A stretch of DNA of 64,000 bases from Microcystaceae cyanobacterium. Its GTDB lineage: Bacteria; Cyanobacteriota; Cyanobacteriia; Cyanobacteriales; Microcystaceae. Shown here in pieces: positions 1 to 10,221 of the stretch. The notes beneath the pieces were generated by a model, which was given only the letters and a program-made list of their open reading frames with translations, was not told where the DNA came from and searched no databases. The stretch is from assembly GCA_041746575.1 (NCBI GenBank), contig JBGTGT010000098.1, forward strand, positions 96,001 to 160,000, given 5' to 3'. The position numbers and the translations under genes were made by a program. The first letter of the stretch is position 1, and each line of letters starts with the position of its first letter.

Positions 1-983
1 ACGATGCTAATCAACCCCAATATTTACTCTGCACTCGACGGACGCGCCTCAAAAAAATTGGACAAAAAGTGATTGTGGGGGATTGGGTGACTATTGAAGA
101 ACCTGACTTTCAGGGAGGAAGAGGGGCAATCAGCGAAGTTCTACCTCGTAAAACCCGCCTAGATCGCCCCTTGATTGCCAATGCAGACCATATTCTTTTG
201 GTTTTTGCGGTTGCTGAACCCGATTTAGACGCGTGGCAACTCAGCCGTTTTTTAGTCAAAGCAGAATCCACTTCACTATCGGTGTCTCTTTGCTTCAATA
301 AAACCGATTTAATCTCAGAAAATCAACAAAAACAATGGCAAGAACGCTTAAGTAATTGGGGTTATGATTCGATTTTTGTGAGTATAAAACATCAACGAAA
401 TTTAGAGAAACTTACGGAACAATTAACAGGAAAAACGTCTATATTAGCTGGACCTTCTGGGGTCGGCAAATCCAGTTTAATTAATTATTTTATCCCTGCA
501 GGATCTCAACGAACCAATCAAGTCTCTGGCAAGTTACAAAAGGGTCGTCATACCACTCGCCATGTGGAACTTTTTGACTTACCTGATGGAGGATTATTGG
601 CTGATAGTCCGGGCTTTAATCAACCTGACTTGAAAACCCATCCGCAAGAATTAGAGTTATACTTTCCTGAAATTCGTCATCGTTTAGCTCAAGGATCTTG
701 TCAATTTAAGGATTGTTTACATCGTCATGAACCCCATTGCGTTGTTCGAGGGGAATGGGAACGTTATGACCACTATTTAAAGTTTTTAGAAGAAACCCTT
801 GCTTATCAATCTGCATTACAACAACGGCCTGATCAAGAATCAAGTTTAAAGCTCAAAACAAAAGGATCGGGTCAACAGGAATATGAACCTAAATTGTCTA
901 GTAAAAAATATCGTCGCCAATCCCGTCGGTCTAAACATCAAAAATTACAAGATTTCTACGAAAATAATTTAGAAGAAGATTGA
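1..983 (+). CDS. rsgA: Ribosome small subunit-dependent GTPase A, 5' truncated by the window edge
   Basis: Frame open from position 3 (DANQPQYLLCTRRTRLKKIGQKVIVGD); circularly permuted GTPase motifs NKTD, GPSGVGKSS, GRHTT, DSPG and Zn finger CQFKDCLHRHEPHC. Confidence 0.96.
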   Translation, partial: DANQPQYLLCTRRTRLKKIGQKVIVGDWVTIEEPDFQGGRGAISEVLPRKTRLDRPLIANADHILLVFAVAEPDLDAWQLSRFLVKAESTSLSVSLCFNKTDLISENQQKQWQERLSNWGYDSIFVSIKHQRNLEKLTEQLTGKTSILAGPSGVGKSSLINYFIPAGSQRTNQVSGKLQKGRHTTRHVELFDLPDGGLLADSPGFNQPDLKTHPQELELYFPEIRHRLAQGSCQFKDCLHRHEPHCVVRGEWERYDHYLKFLEETLAYQSALQQRPDQESSLKLKTKGSGQQEYEPKLSSKKYRRQSRRSKHQKLQDFYENNLEED

Positions 984-1045
984 AAATTAGCTTTATTCTC
1001 AACTGAAATATAGCGAATTTTCTAGACATAACATTTTAGGGTATA

Positions 1046-2308
1046 TTATAATGACCCATGTTTTTGTGCTAATCGGATAGGTCGGACTAGGTAATATAAA
1101 AAACTGAGAGATTTAGGTAAGCTTAAATAGCTTATATCTTCTTCAGTAGGAGTCATGACTAATCGGCAAAACTGTCCCACTAAATAGCCTTTACTTGTCA
1201 TTTTTTGCAGAGAAGGTTCTCTAAGAAGGCGGAATAAGAAATTTTCTAATATACCTTGAAGGTTTTCTGTACCAGCAAACATTTGCTGACAAACTTTCTC
1301 TCCATATAATTTACTGACTGGATCTGTTTTTATTCGTTGTAAAACTGAGTTGGGTATTTCTGATTTAAAGAGATTTTGGGCTAGAAATAATCCAAGTAGT
1401 AAAATTCGTTCAATTCTTATTTCACTAGCTTGCTTAAAAACGAATTCCCAATTCATTTTGGGATGTAATTGAAGAAGTTCAGCTACATCACAAACCCCTT
1501 TGAGCGATCGCCACTGATCTTTCATGGCGTTAATACAAAGAATTAATAATAAATTTTCCGGCGAAAAACTGAGAATTGTTGTATTAGCAAAAGAAACAGA
1601 ATGAACAGAATTCCACCACCAATTGGAATCCATACTCAAAAAAGATTCCTGTCCCGCCAAGGTCCAATGAATTTCCAAAAAAGCAATCTTATCTTTATTC
1701 GGTTTAAACTTATAATTAAACTGAGAAGGAGAACGAAGAAATTCAGACTCTAGTTCATCCGTTATCCCATATTCTGATAAATATTCATTGTTTCTTTCTA
1801 AGATGAGTAAGGGTTGATAATCTTCTGACATTAGTAGCTCTTTGATTTTTAAAATATCCTTTTTATGAACAATAATATCTAGGTCGCTAATCTGTCGAAG
1901 TGCTAGATTTTTATAAAGTAATAAAGCCAGTACCGGTCCTTTATAGGGAATAGCAGAAATATTATGCTCCTTAAATAAATTGAGTAAATCCATTAATTCT
2001 TTGGCTAAAGATAAATTATGCTGTGCATTGCGATGAAAGAAATTCCGTAGTTGAGAAAAAATCGCCGTAGGAACGTCTTCTGGACAAATAGCATTTAAAC
2101 TATAATATAAGAGCGGCATTACTCCATGATGAGCCGATGTTTTAATCAGGTAAGACCAGTCAATTTCCTGTTTAACTAAGGTTTGAATTCGTTTTTTTGT
2201 GATTAAATCAATCTGAGTTCTGGCGCAACATAATAATAATTCGATTTCAGGGCGGGTTTTTGGAATTAGTTGGCTCGAAAAAAGTTGAAGACTAGAGAAG
2301 GTTTTCAT
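1046..2308 (-). CDS. Nucleotidyltransferase family protein (NTP_transf_5 type, as found in lasso-peptide-like clusters)
   Basis: ELLLCCAR...IDWSYL...HHGVMPLLY N-terminus; YKGPVLA..LY.NLALRQISDLDIIV, LEIHW and CDVAELL motifs. Confidence 0.88.
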   Translation of the reverse strand: MKTFSSLQLFSSQLIPKTRPEIELLLCCARTQIDLITKKRIQTLVKQEIDWSYLIKTSAHHGVMPLLYYSLNAICPEDVPTAIFSQLRNFFHRNAQHNLSLAKELMDLLNLFKEHNISAIPYKGPVLALLLYKNLALRQISDLDIIVHKKDILKIKELLMSEDYQPLLILERNNEYLSEYGITDELESEFLRSPSQFNYKFKPNKDKIAFLEIHWTLAGQESFLSMDSNWWWNSVHSVSFANTTILSFSPENLLLILCINAMKDQWRSLKGVCDVAELLQLHPKMNWEFVFKQASEIRIERILLLGLFLAQNLFKSEIPNSVLQRIKTDPVSKLYGEKVCQQMFAGTENLQGILENFLFRLLREPSLQKMTSKGYLVGQFCRLVMTPTEEDISYLSLPKSLSFLYYLVRPIRLAQKHGSL

Positions 2309-2314
2309 CGCATT

Positions 2315-4168
2315 TTACCGATAAGATGAGGTTAAATTGGAACTTGTTAAACTATATTGTTGAGCTTGAATTTGAAACAAATGTGCGTAAGTTTTTCCGA
2401 GTTTCATGAGTTCTGCATGCGTACCATCTTCTACAATCTGTCCTTGTTCAAGAACATAAATTCGATCCGCCATTTTTACAGTTGATAAGCGATGACTAAT
2501 CAAAATCGCTGCTTGATTTTTTAAGAGTTGACGAAATCGTTTAAAGACTTCATATTCCGCCTTAGGATCTAAAGCACTGGTGGGTTCATCTAAGACAATT
2601 AGCTGAGAATCTCGCAAAAATGCTCGTGCTAAAGCAATTTTTTGCCATTGACCAATGCTCAGTTCTTCTCCCTGCTCAAACCATTTCCCCAGAACGGTAT
2701 TATAGCCTTTGGGGAGTTGATTAATCACTTCATCGGCTCCTGCATAACCGGCGGCAACGGCGATTTTTTCGGCTTCAGGGGGAATATTGATGTTGCCAAA
2801 CCAGATATTTTCCTGTACTGTGAGGTGGTATTTGGTATAGTCTTGGAAAATAACGCTAATTTCTTGTCTAAGCTCTGTCAGTCTAAATTGGCGTAGGTCA
2901 ATCCCATCAAGGGTAATATTTCCTTCTGTGGGGTCATAGAGACGACATAAGAGTTTGATTAGGGTGGTTTTACCGGAGCCATTCTCCCCAACTAAGGCAA
3001 CGATTTCCCCCGGTTGAATGGTTAAATTCACCGCTTCTAAGGCTTGTCGGCTACTGGTAGGATATTGGAAACTGACTTGATTAAAAATAATCCCTTTTTG
3101 CATGGGTTGGGGAACAGGTTTAGGATGAAGGGGATCGGCAATTTTAGGTCTCAGATCCAGAAATTCGTAGAGATTAGACAAAAATAGATTATCTGAATAA
3201 AGTCCTGCCAAATCGCCTAAGATTCCTTGAAAAGCGGACTGGATTTTCTGAAATGCTTGATGATACATGACTAATCCGCCTAGCGTAATCGTCCCTTGCA
3301 CAGTTTGATAAGCAATAAAGCCATAAACCCCAAAAACGGCAAGAGTAGAACTGATTTGACTGATTAACTGGCGCAGAGAATATTGAGTGGTGAGTTGCAG
3401 TTTTTCTCGATGCAGTTGACGGCGTAATTGACGAAAACGACGGGCAAACAGCGATCCTAACGCAAATAAACGGATTTCTTTGGCGTGCCAGTCTTGGGTT
3501 AACATCCAGTGAAAGTAATTTGCTCGTCTTTCGGTTGTTGTCTTTTGTCGTTGCCAACGATACACTTGACCGGCGTATTTTAAACGCACGAGAATATTTG
3601 GGATAACCGCTACAATGACAATGGCAATAATCCCCCAGTGTAAAGATAGGAGTAAGCTAGCGATCGCTACTAACGAAACACTATTTTGAGCAATTTGAAC
3701 CAATTTATTGAGAACCTGATTGGGACGAAAGGAAGCTTCTGATTGAGCGCGGTGTAGGGTATCGTAGTATTTAGCATTTTCGTAATATTCCAAATCCACT
3801 TCAATAGACTTAGCGTGAAGCAGTCCATACATATAGTCCGAAACCAACTGAGATTGAATTTCATCGACCAATTTAGTCAAAAAACTGCATAAATTACTGA
3901 TTACCGTCACAGCACCTGCGAAACTAATGAGGGTAAGAACTGTTTGAAAAGCTGAAGCTTTGTTTGGAGCCGTAATACCTATATTAACCGCGTCGACCAC
4001 CAATTTCATGAGATAGAGAGAGAATAGAGGTAAAATCCCTTGAATAAGGATTAAAAATACTCTAGCCATTGTCCAACGGGGACTACTTTGCCAAACTAAA
4101 GAGACAGCACGGCCTAACCGTAGGGATTGGCTGATTTTTGCCCTTAATCTTGTTAAATAAGCCATCAT
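2315..4168 (-). CDS. ABC exporter, fused permease plus ATP-binding domain, no C39 peptidase domain
   Basis: N-terminal TM helices, AKEIRLF, Walker A GENGSGKTT, signature ELSIGQWQK, Walker B LIVLDEPT; likely ATG at 4168 or 4165 just after the lanM stop. Confidence 0.93.
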   Translation of the reverse strand: MMAYLTRLRAKISQSLRLGRAVSLVWQSSPRWTMARVFLILIQGILPLFSLYLMKLVVDAVNIGITAPNKASAFQTVLTLISFAGAVTVISNLCSFLTKLVDEIQSQLVSDYMYGLLHAKSIEVDLEYYENAKYYDTLHRAQSEASFRPNQVLNKLVQIAQNSVSLVAIASLLLSLHWGIIAIVIVAVIPNILVRLKYAGQVYRWQRQKTTTERRANYFHWMLTQDWHAKEIRLFALGSLFARRFRQLRRQLHREKLQLTTQYSLRQLISQISSTLAVFGVYGFIAYQTVQGTITLGGLVMYHQAFQKIQSAFQGILGDLAGLYSDNLFLSNLYEFLDLRPKIADPLHPKPVPQPMQKGIIFNQVSFQYPTSSRQALEAVNLTIQPGEIVALVGENGSGKTTLIKLLCRLYDPTEGNITLDGIDLRQFRLTELRQEISVIFQDYTKYHLTVQENIWFGNINIPPEAEKIAVAAGYAGADEVINQLPKGYNTVLGKWFEQGEELSIGQWQKIALARAFLRDSQLIVLDEPTSALDPKAEYEVFKRFRQLLKNQAAILISHRLSTVKMADRIYVLEQGQIVEDGTHAELMKLGKTYAHLFQIQAQQYSLTSSNLTSSYR

Positions 4169-4173
4169 TTGCT

Positions 4174-7100
4174 TTATTCCCACAACAAGACAGACGGTAA
4201 TTGGTCAGGATAGGCGAGTCGTAGGAGTTGATACCCAATACCTGATGCACCTTGGAAGAAACCGGGGTGAAAATCGAGAATAGGACCATAACCATAATGG
4301 CCTTTTTGTTCGGCGCGTGCGACGACTTGGGAGGCAAGGTTCATCGCTGCATCCACTAATTCAGGTCGGTTGAGTTTACGTCCAGCAGTGAAGAGAAATT
4401 CAACCCGTCCCATATTGCCACAACAGAGATGATCAATGTCTGAGAGTCCGTAATTAAGCGTTGTGGTGATAGCAGCCTCAATATCTTGGCGAATTTCTGG
4501 GGTATCGAGAATATCTAGGGTGGCAACTCTGGCTAATCCAATTCCGGGCGCACCATGGCACCATGAACACATACATCTCGGGTAATCTTTGGTTTGGGGT
4601 TGTCGAAAATCTGGCCAGTTATTGAGTTCGGGGATAAAAACACTGCGTTCGTAGGCGATCGCTTCTTCTGCTGCTTCTTTATAGCGGTTATCGCCTGTTA
4701 ATTTATAGAGACGAAGTAAAGCATAGGCAATTCCTGCCGCACCATGAGAGAAACCTGTTAAGAGTTTTGTTTGTTTATTTTGGCTAACTTCTGATGTTAA
4801 GTTCATCAACTTCAACTGATTTATAATATGATCGCCATATTTTTTGCACTTTCCTAAAATCTTTTGAGATAAAGTAGTTTTATAAATGCCCAGAAAACTT
4901 AGCATAATACCTGCCACACCTGATATTACATCAAGTCTACTCTGTGTTTCTTCTATAGATACTTGAGATACCTGAGCTATGTTAGTTAAATCATCATAAT
5001 CAGTTGATTTGTAACTTGGCATAAAATTATGAACTAGATTTAATCCATAAGATAGTGAAGAAAATTCAAACAACTCTCCTAGTGAATGAATCTCTACATT
5101 TTCATTCACTATACTTTTATTATTTTTTATTTTAGGTAGAATAGAATTCATTAAGTTCTGAAACTCTAAATTATTATTATTGCCGAGAACGTGATCTAAA
5201 GCGCTCAAGAAAATAGCAATTCCAATTGCTCCATTATACAAATAATTATCAATAGGACGAAATTGAAATTTGTTAATTACTTCAAAATACTTGGGAGCAA
5301 ACCAAGTTGATATTTTATTATTTAGCTTTATTGATTTTTTAAACATACTCTCCTTTATTTTTTGGCATTCTTTCACGAAGATATCGTTATTGAATTGTCT
5401 TAGTGGGATTACACAATAAGAACTTTCTTGAGAAACATTGTTATCTAAATTTTGATCAATTATGAAAGAATCTAAAGCTCCTTTTATGAAATAAATCTGC
5501 TGTTTTATATCGGCTTGATTGATTTTTTTTAACCTCTTAAAAACAAAATTGAAACTGGGTTCTTCAAAAAAATTTGTAGAAATCACTTTATTTCCATTAA
5601 ATAAATGAACACTACCAGAGTCAGTTAAAAATAGAGGAATATCTAATTTTTCTAAGGCTTCTATTTCCAAAGATAATAAAGACCAAGTAGAAGGTTTTTG
5701 CTTAGATTTTAGAAGCTGTTTAGAAAGAGTATCCAAAACTATACTTCTTTCAATTCCATTCTTCATACAACTTGGAGTCAGACCAGCCTCTTCAATAACT
5801 CTATAGATTCTGGTTGGACGTAATATATAACGTATTAGTTGATGAGAAAATTTTGCTAGGATATTATTATGTTTTAACAGGTTATTTTTATGTTTAATAA
5901 ATATATCACACATCTGAGTAAATCCATCTAAGATTAGAGTAGAACATATAGAATGATCTATATTGAGTCTTTGATTTGTTAAAAAAGTATTAGTCAAGTG
6001 AAGAGAGTGAGCGTTAGAAAAACGCAACATTGTATCTGTGTTAACATTTTTAAATTCTGATGTAATTACATAAACTGGTTTTGCATTAAACTCTTGTAAT
6101 GCACCAGAGCTAAAAGATTGTCCATTTTCTGCAGACATCCATATTGGTAATAGTCCAGTACGAAGAACAGACTTTTTGAGAAGATTATAACTAAAACTTT
6201 GAATATTATCTTCCAAGTCTTGAGCATTCTCAAGATTTTTTCTAGGATGCATCAACGTCTCTAAATCAATAATCACTGGATATTCTCCATGACTAATGAT
6301 ATTATCAAAGTGTAAGTCTGTAGCATCTAGTAGATAACTTACTGCTAGTAGCATTCCCATTCTGTGATAGTAATATTCAGCCGATTCTCTTGTTGTGAAA
6401 GCATTGCTTTCAACAAACTCAACCCAGCCATATTCAGGGCGAACTAAAGTTTTAATTATCTTGAATTTTAATATTTGTGTTTTATCATTAAAATATTGTA
6501 ACAACTCAAAAAAAAGACTTTCTAAATTTATATTTTTAGGTTTATAGATTAATTTTAGCCCAGATTGAAAATGAATACACAAAACACTTTTGCCATTTTG
6601 GTGTCTATCTGATAAATCAGTTTCAATATGAACTACTTCTTTTAGTTTATTTTGACTAAATTTTTTTTCTATATCTGACCAATCTTGATCAAGACGTTGG
6701 ATTAATAACATAGTATTATTAATCCACATATTAATCACAGTCACAATTAAACGTGCTAATACTGAATACTCGCAAAAAAAGACTTTTATTCGACGCTTAA
6801 GTAAATCATTGATAAAATTAAAATAATCATCATTTTCATATGTACTTTTTTCTTTTCTTGAGATTATACTAAAAGTAGTTTTTTTGCCTATTTTAAAGAG
6901 GAAAAATTCTAGCTCTAAGGTTCTTTCACTTACTTTTGAAAGTGTTCTAAGTAAGCTTTTTTCTAAGTCAAGATGGGCTGATTGACCGATGATATAATAT
7001 TTTTGACCAATTTTTTCTTTGAGTTGATGTCTAGCAAAATTAATAAAGTGAAGATAAAAATCTTCAAAAGGGAGAGTATTATTATTTCTCTTTTTAATAA

Positions 7101-7446
7101 TTTCCTCTTTCTCATTATAGATAGTTTCCTGAAAAGATACAGATATAAACTCTAAAAGCTCATCAAGAGTTTTCAGCCAATTTGGGATAGTTAAGTTCTC
7201 TACACAATCTTGATAAGTAATCGCATTTCTAACATCTGTTAATTCAAGATTAGACCAAGCTAAGCGACGTCTAAATAGACTCCAATTTCCATTTGTTACC
7301 ACTTGGCACCATTTTTCAATAATAAAATCTGAATTCTTTTGGATTGATTTTTTATTAGTATCTATTATTGATCTATGGGTATTCAGAATTTCATTCAAAG
7401 ATTGGCTGTTTGCAAAAATATGCAAAGTTTCTTCGTAAGATAACAT
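4174..7446 (-). CDS. lanM: Class II lanthipeptide synthetase LanM (ProcM-like CCG cyclase motif)
   Basis: Dehydratase motifs SDRH, LIYKP, YGWVEFV, TDLHFDNII, IIDLETL, SVLRTGLLP, RYILRPT; LanC motifs GFSHGAAG, WCHGAPG, HLCCGNMG, GFFQGASGIG; AGGAG RBS upstream. Confidence 0.96.
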   Translation of the reverse strand: MLSYEETLHIFANSQSLNEILNTHRSIIDTNKKSIQKNSDFIIEKWCQVVTNGNWSLFRRRLAWSNLELTDVRNAITYQDCVENLTIPNWLKTLDELLEFISVSFQETIYNEKEEIIKKRNNNTLPFEDFYLHFINFARHQLKEKIGQKYYIIGQSAHLDLEKSLLRTLSKVSERTLELEFFLFKIGKKTTFSIISRKEKSTYENDDYFNFINDLLKRRIKVFFCEYSVLARLIVTVINMWINNTMLLIQRLDQDWSDIEKKFSQNKLKEVVHIETDLSDRHQNGKSVLCIHFQSGLKLIYKPKNINLESLFFELLQYFNDKTQILKFKIIKTLVRPEYGWVEFVESNAFTTRESAEYYYHRMGMLLAVSYLLDATDLHFDNIISHGEYPVIIDLETLMHPRKNLENAQDLEDNIQSFSYNLLKKSVLRTGLLPIWMSAENGQSFSSGALQEFNAKPVYVITSEFKNVNTDTMLRFSNAHSLHLTNTFLTNQRLNIDHSICSTLILDGFTQMCDIFIKHKNNLLKHNNILAKFSHQLIRYILRPTRIYRVIEEAGLTPSCMKNGIERSIVLDTLSKQLLKSKQKPSTWSLLSLEIEALEKLDIPLFLTDSGSVHLFNGNKVISTNFFEEPSFNFVFKRLKKINQADIKQQIYFIKGALDSFIIDQNLDNNVSQESSYCVIPLRQFNNDIFVKECQKIKESMFKKSIKLNNKISTWFAPKYFEVINKFQFRPIDNYLYNGAIGIAIFLSALDHVLGNNNNLEFQNLMNSILPKIKNNKSIVNENVEIHSLGELFEFSSLSYGLNLVHNFMPSYKSTDYDDLTNIAQVSQVSIEETQSRLDVISGVAGIMLSFLGIYKTTLSQKILGKCKKYGDHIINQLKLMNLTSEVSQNKQTKLLTGFSHGAAGIAYALLRLYKLTGDNRYKEAAEEAIAYERSVFIPELNNWPDFRQPQTKDYPRCMCSWCHGAPGIGLARVATLDILDTPEIRQDIEAAITTTLNYGLSDIDHLCCGNMGRVEFLFTAGRKLNRPELVDAAMNLASQVVARAEQKGHYGYGPILDFHPGFFQGASGIGYQLLRLAYPDQLPSVLLWE

Positions 7447-7562
7447 TTTTTTCTCCTTGTATTTTTCTAAAAAATTCTAACTTGTAAATCCGATAAATCA
7501 TCAGCTAGTTACATACATAGCCAATATTTTTATGATAAGAAGAACTAGCTATTGAGTATTGT

Positions 7563-8255
7563 CTAACATATATAATTGTTTGTGCTTGCACAGAATATCG
7601 TGTCCATTAGAGAATCATCCCCAATAATTCCGCAACCAGAAACTTCTACACTATATGTTAAGCTTGATAAGGACTGAAGATAAATAGATAAACTAGGGAT
7701 AAAAGGATTAGGTAAAATCACAAATATTTTATCAGTTTTTTCTTCAAAAATCTTGATAAAAATATTTTGCGAAAGTTCAAGAGTTAGATAAGCTTTTATT
7801 GTTTTTAGTGGCTCTCGAATTAGCCGATCTTTTAAATCTCTATTTCTCCAACAATTAGTAATTAATTGTATAGCATGGTTACTATCTACTACAGTATTTC
7901 GTTGCTGATCCAAAACCCAGCGAGCAACATCCTCATAAGTCATCCCTAAAGCGGCTTGTAATTGCTCTTCAGACATTCCCTCATAAGGATTACAAGGTAA
8001 CACCATATAAATCGTATCTTCTGTTTCCTCAAGTACCTGAATCTCAAGGTCTTCTGGTAATTTTTGGTCTAATTCTTGTTCAATTACTGCTTTAGGATTT
8101 GCTAATAACTCCTGTTTAAAGTCTTCATCTTTTAAAGCACGAGTAATCAGATGAATTTCTAAATCTTTGCGAGTTTGTAAAGCTAACTGAGAATTTGGTT
8201 TAAACTGAAAAGACCATAGGGGTAAGTTGGGGTTCATGCTTTCATGAGTATTCAT
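7563..8255 (-). CDS. NHLP (nitrile-hydratase-like leader) RiPP precursor with two tandem leader domains and a C-terminal Cys-containing core
   Basis: Leader 1 TRKDLEIHLITRALKDEDFKQELLANPKAVIEQEL..LPEDLEIQVLEETEDTIYMVLP; leader 2 LITNCWRNRDLKDRLIREPLKTI...IKIFEEKTDKIFVILP; C-terminus VSGCGIIGDDSLMDTIFCASTNNYIC; directly upstream of lanM. Confidence 0.88.
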   Translation of the reverse strand: MNTHESMNPNLPLWSFQFKPNSQLALQTRKDLEIHLITRALKDEDFKQELLANPKAVIEQELDQKLPEDLEIQVLEETEDTIYMVLPCNPYEGMSEEQLQAALGMTYEDVARWVLDQQRNTVVDSNHAIQLITNCWRNRDLKDRLIREPLKTIKAYLTLELSQNIFIKIFEEKTDKIFVILPNPFIPSLSIYLQSLSSLTYSVEVSGCGIIGDDSLMDTIFCASTNNYIC

Positions 8256-8273
8256 GGTAAAATCTCCTAAAAT

Positions 8274-8645
8274 TTAGTGAAGTTGTTTGCGTTTTTTGAG
8301 AATTTTATTTCCGGCGAAAATAGAGCCAATTACCATTAAGCCAAAGATAGAAGAAGGTTCAGGAATACAAATTGTCTTATCGTCTTGTATATCATCTGAT
8401 GTGAAATCAGTAACCCCTAAGATTTTCAGAGGTTTGCCATTTTGTCCTCGACAATAATAGACTTTATCGCCATCTCCGATATCTTCTTCCTCAAATGCTC
8501 CTCTTTGAGCAAAACAAGTGAACGCAAATTCTTCAAGTGTAAAGCCCTGAGTTGCATAGGCCAATGGATGACTAAATACCAGCATTGCTATTGTAGATAA
8601 GAGAAAGAATCGATAATTATTGCGAATATGACGAATGACTAACAT
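8274..8645 (-). CDS. Small PEP-CTERM sorting-domain protein
   Basis: Signal peptide ending LAYA; C-terminal IPEPSSIFGLMVIGSIFAG followed by basic KKRK; start at 8645 or 8657, overlapping the B2 stop. Confidence 0.85.
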   Translation of the reverse strand: MLVIRHIRNNYRFFLLSTIAMLVFSHPLAYATQGFTLEEFAFTCFAQRGAFEEEDIGDGDKVYYCRGQNGKPLKILGVTDFTSDDIQDDKTICIPEPSSIFGLMVIGSIFAGNKILKKRKQLH

Positions 8646-9115
8646 AATAAAAACCATCCCTTTTTTTGCTCACCGTCAATCGCTGATAAAGGAACTCGAA
8701 TATATCGAGCCATATTCCCTGCACCACCGATAATGACTTTCCCTTCGTATTCTACCCACGCATGGGCTGACATTTTCCCTTTTGGATGTCGGGTAAACCC
8801 AATACAAAGGTCAGGTGAATAACCCCGTTCTTCTAATAGCAATTGAGTCGCTAATGCACGTGCTAAACATCTAATTTTTCGTACATAGTGACTCGCAGTT
8901 CTCACTGTCCATAACACCCTATCTATCTCCACAGAAGCTTGCTCTGCATCGTATAATTTAGGGTTAGACGGAAAGACTTTCGCTAAAAGAAAACGTAACC
9001 TTTGAAAAGGTAAAAACTTCAGTCCGACTCGAATACTTCCTAGTAAAATAAACGCCTTAATCAGCAACAATTTTTCCGAGAAAGTGAGTTGTAGAAACTT
9101 AAGTAGCCTTTTCAT
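8639..9115 (-). CDS. Lasso peptide biosynthesis B2-type protein (transglutaminase-like Cys protease)
   Basis: Amphipathic N-terminus (EKLLLIKAFILL..IRVGLKFLPF), catalytic CLARALA and AHAWVE motifs; ATG at 9115. Confidence 0.9.
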   Translation of the reverse strand: MKRLLKFLQLTFSEKLLLIKAFILLGSIRVGLKFLPFQRLRFLLAKVFPSNPKLYDAEQASVEIDRVLWTVRTASHYVRKIRCLARALATQLLLEERGYSPDLCIGFTRHPKGKMSAHAWVEYEGKVIIGGAGNMARYIRVPLSAIDGEQKKGWFLLC

Positions 9116-9138
9116 GTTCAATGAGTCTTGGTGAATCG

Positions 9139-9209
9139 CTTCTACTTATTACTCGGAAACAGTCACTGACTTTGTGACGCCTTCCGTTAAAGTTGTTACA
9201 AAACTCAAC
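9139..9209 (-). promoter_or_regulatory. Conserved upstream element, copy A (shared with 36619-36689)
   Basis: 59/71 ungapped identity to 36619-36689; contains TTTGTGAC-N16-GTTACAAA inverted repeat; 24 nt from the B2 ATG. Confidence 0.75.
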
Positions 9210-9336
9210 AATTTATAGCCGACAGAATAACAAAACAACCCCTGCAAAAGACGTTGCTAAGTAGGGGAGGAACAAGCAATCATTAAAAATCAAAGAAAAT
9301 ACCGTCTTTTGCCACTGATGAAGTATTTGATTGATG

Positions 9337-9397
9337 GTAGGGGTGCAAGGTTTGCGCCCAAAGTGCAAGGTTTGCGCCCAAAATGCAAGGTTTACGC
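9337..9397 (+). repeat. REP-like hairpin GTAGGGGTGCAAGGTTTGCGCCC, expanded to about three tandem 20-nt units
   Basis: GTGCAAGGTTTGCGCCCAAA twice plus a partial third copy; related copies at 58307 and 60122. Confidence 0.8.
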
Positions 9398-10221
9398 TAA
9401 TTATTAATGATTGTATTTAAGCTTTTTAAAAGAGTTTCGAGGGGAATTGCCCAACTATATTGACTCATCTCTTGTTTTTCCGTTAAGGATGCCCGTGTTC
9501 CGTCTGTAAACACATAAGGATTCCCCCACAGCGGATATTTATGAATGCCGTTAATGCCAATAATTTCGCCAAATTGATTAAATAGCGCACCACCGCTCAT
9601 GCCTTTTCGTACCGTACTCGTATAGCCAATTTGATAACCTCCCGCAAAGGGTTTAGGACTCCATTGACTGATAATTCCCGGATTGAGGACGAATTGCCCC
9701 CTAGAATCTCCATCATCCTCTACGGGAAACCCTGCCGCAAATACCGGTTCACCCCTTTGTGGTTGACTTGAAACGAATAAAGACGCAACCGAATAGGAGA
9801 GAGGACTGGTAAAAGTGACTAGGGCTAAATCTTGATCTCGAAAATTAACGTTTTTTAGGACATTTGCCGGATGAACTTGACCGTCGGGGGTGACGATTCG
9901 ATAATTTTGTTGAGGTTCACCATAAATCATAACATGACGATTTGTTACGACCATATAACGGTTACCCCTTTGTTGAATAATAATCCCTGATCCCCACGTT
10001 TGGCCGGATAAGACTTTGACAGTTACCCTTCTGGCGGTTTGATAAATCTCATTCTGCTCAAATATAGGGGGGAATCGTGGGGAGGGAGAGGTTAAAGAAC
10101 GGGATGGAAACGGTTCATCCATTGGCGTATCGCTAAAATCAAGGGGTTCTTCAATCGCACACCCCGGATTGAAAGATAAAAACGACCAACCCATGAGGAA
10201 TAAAACCTTTTGCCATTTCAT
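9397..10221 (-). CDS. Trypsin-like (S1) serine protease
   Basis: WGSGII, VTNRHV, DLAL and GMSGG catalytic motifs; signal peptide; adjacent to a COP23 gene, a common cyanobacterial pairing. Confidence 0.9.
   Translation of the reverse strand: MKWQKVLFLMGWSFLSFNPGCAIEEPLDFSDTPMDEPFPSRSLTSPSPRFPPIFEQNEIYQTARRVTVKVLSGQTWGSGIIIQQRGNRYMVVTNRHVMIYGEPQQNYRIVTPDGQVHPANVLKNVNFRDQDLALVTFTSPLSYSVASLFVSSQPQRGEPVFAAGFPVEDDGDSRGQFVLNPGIISQWSPKPFAGGYQIGYTSTVRKGMSGGALFNQFGEIIGINGIHKYPLWGNPYVFTDGTRASLTEKQEMSQYSWAIPLETLLKSLNTIINN

Follow-up and report, generated by a model that had tools for sequence, protein, structure and literature searches.

A lanthipeptide synthetase and a tandem NHLP precursor among lasso-type accessory genes in a Microcystaceae cyanobacterium

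[quoted passage not shown] In the order in which they are read, they are predicted to encode a lasso-type B2 leader peptidase, a PEP-CTERM protein, a precursor with nitrile hydratase leader peptide (NHLP) domains, a LanM lanthipeptide synthetase, an ATP-binding cassette (ABC) exporter and an NTP_transf_5 nucleotidyltransferase (Table 1). The initial annotation had described six co-oriented, tightly packed genes, and this description stands: all are uninterrupted open reading frames (ORFs) on the minus strand, the family matches of B2, the precursor, LanM, the nucleotidyltransferase and, narrowly, the PEP-CTERM protein exceed the curated cut-offs, and the junctions from B2 to the nucleotidyltransferase are an overlap of 7-19 nt, gaps of 18 and 116 nt, an overlap of 10 or a gap of 5 nt, and a gap of 6 nt. 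Three contigs from three sequencing runs of one study, which is possibly the source of this DNA, span positions 500-10000 and show zero differences.

Table 1. Features of the gene cluster, with positions in the window (aa, amino acids)
Feature	Position	Strand	Evidence or remarks
B2 peptidase gene	9121/9115-8639	minus	NF033537 109 bits (cut-off 33); PF13471
B2 leader peptidase	8639..9121	minus	lasso-type, transglutaminase-like, C96; Cys83 and His118 (numbered from ATG 9115)
PEP-CTERM gene	8657/8645-8274 (likely start 8645)	minus	TIGR02595 21 bits (cut-off 16)
Precursor gene, 230 aa	8255-7563	minus	TIGR03793, two stretches
PNLPLWS-type N-terminal extension	8237-8175	minus	invariant residues, 96-row alignment
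NHLP domain 1	8174-7953	minus	within upstream arm
NHLP domain 2	7871-7707	minus	within variable cassette
lanM	7446-4174	minus	TIGR03897 809 bits (cut-off 304); DUF4135 and LANC_like
ABC exporter gene	4183/4168-2315	minus	MsbA-like, C39 domain not listed
NTP_transf_5 nucleotidyltransferase gene	2308-1046	minus	PF14907 196 bits
Upstream conserved arm, precursor aa 1-120	7894..8296	minus	DNA 84% identical to L058, up to 7894
Variable, AT-rich cassette with NHLP domain 2, core, 116-nt spacer and LanM aa 1-892	4769..7893	minus	GC, blastn, trees
Downstream conserved arm, LanM aa 893-1090, zinc-binding cyclase end	4174..4768	minus	95% aa and 83-84% DNA identity to L058, L076

The LanM protein matches LicM2 and CylM and contains the kinase/lyase motifs YKPK, DLHFDN, IDLET and R539..T545 and the cyclase motifs SHG, WCHG and CCG, and these catalytic motifs are conserved in all eight full LanMs of the family when they are aligned to CylM. 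The roles of the individual residues are reportedly those established for CylM and LctM. The precursor, the only NHLP gene in the genome, has two tandem NHLP domains followed by a C-terminal core with Cys, Ser and Thr; its structure model is confident for both NHLP folds and not for the N-terminal 27 residues or the core (residues 208-230, with two Ser, two Thr and three Cys). By its LanM domains, catalytic motifs and core composition, the predicted cluster passes as one of the class II lanthipeptide type.

The exporter scores 223 against a cut-off of 853 in the test for C39-ABC transporters (TIGR03796 or TIGR01193), has no C39 domain and shares approximately 61% identity with exporters of cyanobacterial lasso clusters, and the nucleotidyltransferase is of the PsmN/LppN type with an intact D-x-D motif (SDLD from residue 141). 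As the initial annotation had noted, neither a lasso cyclase nor an RiPP recognition element (RRE)/B1 nor a C39 domain lies at the locus, and these absences extend to the whole source genome (99.78% complete, 134 contigs). A family search of that genome found no PqqD/RRE, tblastn queries (two each of lasso cyclases, HprK kinases and PqqD proteins) gave no match in it, and a pattern scan of its small ORFs found no lasso-type precursor (YxxPxLxxxGxxxxxT leader). Its sole Asn_synthase match, a candidate cyclase, is QueC. Two C39 matches were considered as LanT and rejected, the first being a cNMP-HlyB-type ABC protein with Ser at the motif position that holds the catalytic Cys of C39 peptidases, and the second a stand-alone 170-aa ORF on a different contig; LanT is absent from the source genome. 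The rest-of-genome search thus returned no asnB-like cyclase and no PqqD, together with two exosortases (PF09721 matches), one of them beside polysaccharide export genes.

Several published systems resemble this cluster in part. Like other NHLP/LanM class II clusters (PMC2887384; Dpr/Osp, PMC12537861; nostolanthin, bioRxiv 2026.08.14.744816), it has the LanM motifs, including the CCG zinc motif, and a hypervariable Cys/Ser/Thr core behind an NHLP leader. Unlike them, it has two NHLP domains, a conserved N-terminal extension and one precursor per LanM; B2, a lasso-type ABC protein and NTP_transf_5 stand in place of a C39-ABC (LanT) or HlyD protein, and the ELxxxELxxVxGG leader end is mostly replaced by three hydrophobic residues and G-S. 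With lasso clusters of the paeninodin/pseudomycoidin type (PMC6993621), found in cyanobacterial form in L041, L042, L046 and L057, it shares the relative gene order, with identities to the cyanobacterial clusters of 42-46% for B2, 40-61% for the ABC protein and 38-41% for the nucleotidyltransferase, and in some relatives of the window locus a decayed PqqD gene still lies ahead of B2. In contrast to those clusters, it has no cyclase, lasso precursor or HprK, its RRE is neutral or lost, and its B2 has a new tail. LPP (linear polyphosphorylated peptide; PMC13381572) is also described as a non-lasso RiPP that reuses an NTP transferase as well as an MsbA-like exporter without a cyclase, but in LPP the RRE and HprK are retained and the protease is of the signal-peptidase-I type, whereas here B2 is kept, the RRE and kinase are lost and LanM would be the modifying enzyme; no RRE or HprK was found in the genome and no signal-peptidase family among the six genes. 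The fused tandem pairs of Delftia and Acidovorax (TIGR03795; PMC2887384) likewise have two NHLP-type units per polypeptide, but they are thiazole/oxazole-modified microcin precursors beside cyclodehydratases, derived from two-peptide pairs, while here a single core follows the second NHLP domain. A daptide peptidase was set aside as a precedent for B2, being a site-2 protease. The cluster belongs neither to the lasso clusters nor to those with LanT export nor to LPP. A search of the full-text literature, which did not extend to subscription papers, gave no description of a B2 with NHLP/LanM, and the words "lasso" and "transglut" do not occur in the main text of Walker 2020.

To follow the gene set in relatives, we used 23 loci: the window, L038, L039 and L055 (genomes), L058 (an Okeania record) and L059 to L076. 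Of these, 22 are assessable for an upstream B2, L069 having been left out with 109 nt upstream only. In all 22, the precursor is immediately preceded by B2 or a piece of it, or separated from it by the PEP-CTERM gene only; the piece in L074 is a 43-codon remnant behind another lanM, and contig ends truncate four. Of the 17 loci that extend over 300 nt past the precursor, 14 have lanM downstream of it (the exceptions are L055, L068 and L071), and all nine sufficiently long loci have the NTP_transf_5 gene. The complete order B2 > precursor > lanM > ABC > nucleotidyltransferase is found in the window, L059, L073 and L076, and its presence in distant cyanobacteria argues that the arrangement is not due to chance. 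There was no lasso cyclase match in the 22 related loci, no lasso precursor in the NHLP loci by pattern, and no C39 family among the scanned neighbour genes. Thus, of the two genomic outcomes that the initial annotation had named as fatal to its proposal, a gene set that does not stay together and homologous loci that always carry a cyclase and a separate lasso precursor, neither was observed.

The spread of the family is patchy. A tandem-NHLP precursor was found in 4 of 401 genomes of the order, with B2 ahead of it in all four, and in none of the 27 other genomes of the host family; the precursor family was found in 0 of 400 other genomes in a phylum sample, no relative was found among viral contigs, and plasmids gave just two generic NHLP matches. 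There are 180 precursor relatives of similar length, and among the best 120 of these the named genera are Microcystis, Dolichospermum, Nostoc, Roholtiella and Synechocystis. In Nostoc sp. CENA67, the accessions of B2 and the precursor directly follow each other, as do their locus tags in Nostoc minutum NIES-26.

Some loci show other compositions. L055 (7879-13996) has a tailed B2 followed by a tandem-NHLP precursor with an acidic Cys-free tail and by genes for PqqD-like, HprK-like and acyl carrier proteins, with NTP_transf_5 on the opposite strand, an AMP-binding enzyme, an upstream condensation-TPR protein and no lanM; the replacement of lanM by the AMP-binding enzyme and its companions is compatible with a chassis that accepts different modifying enzymes. 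Stacked cassettes are seen in L065, with two tandem precursors of different N-terminal types, and in L074, with lanM > B2 remnant > second precursor. In L039 (6677-7618), a GT2 glycosyltransferase gene comes right after the nucleotidyltransferase gene, and the ABC gene is a remnant.

Within the B2 protein, Cys83 and His118 are invariant in a 61-row alignment, and the C-terminus is a family-specific tail ending W154-F-L-L-C (approximately positions 8689-8642), whose W154 is invariant in the same 61 rows, which were selected for having the tail. A tail of 10-14 residues ending in W-x-L-(F/L) is present in 22/22 B2s from NHLP loci versus 0/17 other B2s, and in 74 of 120 database relatives of B2 once one truncated false match is removed. 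Predicted alone, the tail is disordered (predicted local distance difference test below 50 at residues 145-158). At position His+12, where Asp is usual, Gly is found in the window and in cyanobacterial lasso B2s alike. A fold search with the B2 model gave weak transglutaminase-like matches only (Z 4.5-5.6), and complex prediction for precursor and B2 gave a score of 0.01, a value that speaks neither for nor against their binding.

The B2 tree places 17 of 18 NHLP-locus B2s on one branch (85/91), and the nearest B2 genes outside the family belong to ordinary cyanobacterial lasso clusters with the order PqqD > B2 > AsnB > precursor > HprK > ABC > nucleotidyltransferase. A PqqD gene is still present upstream of B2 in L059, L066 and L072, is read through into B2 in L073 and L075, and is broken in L061, L067 and L068. 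Pooled over five loci (ten non-independent pairs), the ratio of nonsynonymous to synonymous differences (pN/pS) is 0.92 for PqqD, against 0.34 for B2 and, at the N-terminus of the precursor, 0.22, with control values of 0.18-0.31 for PqqD and B2 of lasso clusters, and the distinct changes, synonymous/nonsynonymous, number 8/23 in PqqD versus 31/20 in B2 (Fisher p = 0.003). The neutral ratio of PqqD beside a constrained B2 indicates that the RRE is dead and that B2 has been retained. The idea that the locus is a lasso deletion remnant is ruled out by the conservation of the gene set together with the selection on B2.

It is also improbable, in our judgement, that B2 and the nucleotidyltransferase have been kept for some other reason or are slowly decaying passengers, with the lanthipeptide processed by a protease encoded elsewhere. 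Such a reading would have to accommodate purifying selection on B2 next to a neutral RRE, a preserved Cys/His pair and the gain of a conserved tail, as well as the adjacency of B2 to the precursor at every assessable locus, the nucleotidyltransferase at every long one (with D-x-D in 8/9) and the lack of LanT in the genome. It draws some strength from the likeness of the G-S junction to double-glycine sites, from the stand-alone C39-like ORF on another contig, from the mixed phylogeny of the nucleotidyltransferases and from the report (PMC13381572) that deletion of LppN in a heterologous host had no visible effect.

Two further arrangements that involve B2 were seen. In P0262, a tailed B2 is read through into a different small ORF with a hydrophobic and Ser-rich end, so that tailed B2s may precede other precursor types too. 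L040 (5784-13544), L053 (5683-8988) and L054 (4887-7554) have the cyclase-free order PqqD > B2 > precursors with lasso-type leaders > HprK > (ABC) > nucleotidyltransferase, the absence of AsnB resting on ORF layout only, and the cores of L040 are GGR repeats; the products of these three loci look like linear phosphorylated peptides cut by B2.

In the precursor, the N-terminal extension is family-specific, with its residues P, L, P, W, S and S22 at 100% in 119 sequences. Towards the core, leader conservation stops at three hydrophobic residues followed by G (80%) or A and by S (60%) in 88 of 126 precursors, and the cores after this junction have a median of 21 residues, are rich in Thr, Cys, Gly and Ser, and contain Cys in 86 of the 88 cases. 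The classical double-glycine leader end ELEAVAG is kept upstream in a minority of precursors. For the window precursor, the candidate cut junctions lie between S206-G207 and C208 or between G212-D213 and D214.

A cut at the other end of the precursor is conceivable. B2 might cleave solely behind a relic lasso leader close to the N-terminus (T-P-N-L-P-L-W-S ... S22), and the product would then be a two-domain protein of approximately 205 aa with a lanthionine-cyclised tail, or the core might be freed later by another protease. This idea takes its appeal from an extension that is nearly invariant and peculiar to the family, and from an eight-residue stretch of it that outscores 99.7-99.9% of background 8-mers and, in 68 of 120 precursors, matches a profile of cyanobacterial lasso leaders better than any other stretch does; in addition, some cores are long or Cys-free (L055) and some have an S74 domain. 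We nevertheless consider it unlikely: the 8-mer window was picked post hoc and scores around 0 bits where true leaders score 23, in the ranking by the full 20-residue profile the stretch comes first in 0/120 precursors, the hhalign probability is 0.3%, the 8-mer of the window itself scores -6, and the G-S junction with its hypervariable core resembles an ordinary NHLP leader end.

The S74 domain is found in P0004 (Microcystis aeruginosa CS-1036) and P0038, in which the reading frame continues past a short core into a Peptidase_S74 endosialidase chaperone domain, beginning S-D-R-N-L-K, and a coiled coil; this part may be a follower of a RiPP precursor that trimerises and cleaves itself.

Sequence comparison suggests that strains exchange the precursor tail and most of LanM as a single unit. 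The G+C content is 0.285 in LanM 1-900 and 0.31 in precursor 111-230, against 0.47 in LanM 901-1090 and 0.40 in the genome, and blastn of the cassette gave short patches only to any relative. The DNA of the window and L058 is 84% identical over 7894-8296 and 4174-4768, with one short patch between, and LanM 1-892 is 32% identical to that of L058 and 28% to that of L076, while LanM 893-1090 is 95% identical to both. In trees of the eight full loci, L058 groups with L039 on LanM 1-892 (100/99), where the window has a long branch, and with the window and L076 on LanM 893-1090 (100/100). Distances in precursor 121-230 follow those in LanM 1-892 (rho 0.89, Mantel p < 0.001) and not those in precursor 5-120 (0.12, p 0.31); those in B2 show a moderate correlation with precursor 5-120 (0.58), but one with the cassette too (0.51-0.57). 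The 125 distinct precursors include 159 pairs with an identity of 95% or higher over aa 7-120, of which 141 are below 60% in the second NHLP domain, 143 are below 40% in the tail and 9 are alike throughout. For five close loci, the synonymous distance rises from approximately 0.06 in PqqD to 0.2 in B2 and above 1 for most precursor pairs. The conflicting LanM trees and the unrelated cores on near-identical precursor N-termini point to exchange of the cassette, for which homologous recombination would be the route. Strong selection on the cyclase end as a sole explanation would fit the high identity there, but not the conflicting trees or the step in G+C content. If the block is exchanged as a whole, each core travels with its own LanM, whereas B2, the exporter and the nucleotidyltransferase stay. 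No second cassette was seen in four public sequencing runs of the source population; run X4, with 70% of words, was considered as a carrier of one and proved merely fragmented at low depth, with no differing letters. No RNA run was among the listed matches.

PEP-CTERM proteins exit by Sec. The one encoded here has a signal-like N-terminus, an acidic domain of approximately 65 aa with two conserved Cys, and an IPEPSS motif with a transmembrane segment and basic tail; it falls below the cut-off of Pfam PF07589. Its gene lies between B2 and the precursor in only two of the 22 assessable loci, the window and L058, and is absent from the complete loci L059, L073 and L076. A profile of the mature domain found only these two proteins among 1.84 billion representatives, a third match in a 4752-aa repeat protein having been dropped because it had no matched stretch, and a word search with the mature region returned only itself. 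The two genes are 56% identical, with nonsynonymous and synonymous distances (dN, dS) of 0.32 and 0.86 (dN/dS approximately 0.37), a constraint which suggests that the gene does something. The window and L058 are sisters in the B2 tree (99/96), so one insertion would account for the two known members. Given that a rough pattern finds about 37 PEP-CTERM-like ORFs in the genome, this one included, that the gene has no further relatives and that it occurs at two loci only, the link to cell-surface/exopolysaccharide sorting proposed in the initial annotation is not supported as a family trait, though one confined to this lineage may exist; on this comparison, the gene is a selected, lineage-specific accessory and not a core part.

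As a specific form of the proposed link, the PEP-CTERM protein might anchor the lanthipeptide at the cell surface, for instance through transpeptidation by B2 onto its conserved Lys (NGKPLK) or through the reaction of Cys with a dehydro residue. Between B2 and the precursor, the gene sits in translationally tight packing; it has been kept in the distant Okeania record, two exosortases are encoded, B2 has a transglutaminase-like fold (at the weak Z values given above), and a Nostoc lanthipeptide is reported (bioRxiv 10.64898/2026.08.14.744816) to form covalent oligomers. We still hold such a link to be very unlikely, as the gene is missing from 20 of the 22 loci, its two members go back to one insertion event in a background where PEP-CTERM genes are common, and B2 reads as having no evident signal peptide.

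The surroundings of the cluster are rsgA, which converges on it and ends at 983, and a trypsin-like/COP23 pair. The rsgA frame (69-983) has its beginning upstream, outside the window, and measures 357 aa in the genome; the GTG start listed for it is internal. Two congeners and other relatives lack synteny for the rsgA neighbours, so an empty-site comparison gave no insertion point for the cluster. No recombinase gene lies within the cluster, and a promoter/terminator scan gave counts near the shuffled expectation (41 versus 31.6 ± 5.1 and 6 versus 5.1). A short imperfect tandem repeat with a unit of approximately 20 nt lies upstream of B2 (9316-9395); similar repeats on several other contigs of the sequencing runs mark it as a dispersed cyanobacterial repeat.

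The reading that we consider probable, though far from certain, is that of a class II lanthipeptide pathway on a lasso-derived chassis, in which an RRE-independent B2 removes the leader and the second NHLP domain, the core and most of LanM form an exchangeable cassette. It retains the part of the initial annotation that spoke of a non-canonical pathway, given the conserved lasso-type B2, ABC and nucleotidyltransferase genes flanking LanM and an NHLP precursor, and drops surface sorting as a family trait. A cyanobacterial lasso operon with the order PqqD > B2 > cyclase > precursor > HprK kinase > ABC > nucleotidyltransferase would have lost its cyclase, precursor and kinase, and would have acquired the tandem-NHLP precursor and LanM. 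LanM, assigned to its class by profile models and motifs, would bind the second NHLP domain, dehydrate Ser/Thr of the core and close the thioether rings; NHLP binding by LanM has been described for DprM (PMC12537861). B2 (C96) peptidases are described in a review (PMC10885120) for lasso peptides, as RRE-dependent enzymes. Here, an RRE-independent B2 would, plausibly with its new C-terminal tail, dock on the precursor's constant N-terminal half and would cut off the leader of approximately 210 aa at or near the hydrophobic-G-S junction; it is the only protease conserved in these loci. PsmN transfers a hexose onto kinase-phosphorylated pseudomycoidin and needs its D-x-D (PMC6993621). With HprK gone, the cluster has no source of phosphate other than the LanM kinase, and by analogy with PsmN the nucleotidyltransferase might perhaps decorate phospho-Ser/Thr left by this kinase, before the ABC protein would export the product. 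Diversity would arise through homologous exchange of the second NHLP domain, core and LanM 1-892 between the two conserved arms.

Several observations weigh against this interpretation. Eroded copies exist: L039 and L058 are without a full ABC gene, LanM is truncated in L064 and B2 is a remnant in L074. The B2 of L055 falls on a long branch outside the clade of 17, and monophyly is neither shown nor rejected (approximately unbiased test, p-AU 0.52). The junction of the window precursor is atypical and missed by the motif pattern, like those of 38 of the 126, and the penultimate Thr that lasso B2s require (PMC10885120) is not enriched at the lasso register after G-S (18% versus 14% background), which leaves the B2 cut site uncertain; as the junction resembles a double-glycine site, a protease encoded elsewhere could cut it. 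With regard to the exchange, the protein database was clustered at 90%, which drops pairs alike throughout and inflates the discordant share, and linkage by itself gives neighbouring segments a common history, which is why the Mantel pattern is no proof of binding. Finally, the nucleotidyltransferases of NHLP loci are not one clade (p-AU 6e-7), the phosphate-elimination residues of LanM are intact and HprK, the feeder of PsmN, is absent; thus, the nucleotidyltransferase step may not occur. A more elaborate platform, in which the first NHLP domain and the N-terminal extension replace the RRE and recruit the tailed B2, the second NHLP domain, core and most of LanM act as a cartridge, LanM phospho-Ser/Thr intermediates lead to lanthipeptides capped by the nucleotidyltransferase with sugar-phosphate or nucleotide, and the window/Okeania product is displayed on the PEP-CTERM protein, seems to us quite unlikely as a whole.

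What is new here is an intact copy of the gene set, the neutral decay of the RRE, the B2 tail, the exchange of the cassette and a PEP-CTERM gene confined to one lineage. If the interpretation is true, an RRE-free B2 that strips a folded lanthipeptide leader of 200 residues would represent a new mode of leader peptidase and a useful tool, and "lasso B2" would be the wrong label for hundreds of genes in Microcystis, Dolichospermum, Nostoc and Microcoleus. The cluster offers a clean test of NTP_transf_5 function without the HprK kinase, which is relevant to both lasso and LPP biosynthesis. The exchange of a precursor tail together with most of its LanM would be a route to diversity unlike the prochlorosin model of many precursors and one enzyme, and the family exposes at least 120 distinct uncharacterised cores, several of them in bloom-forming genera.

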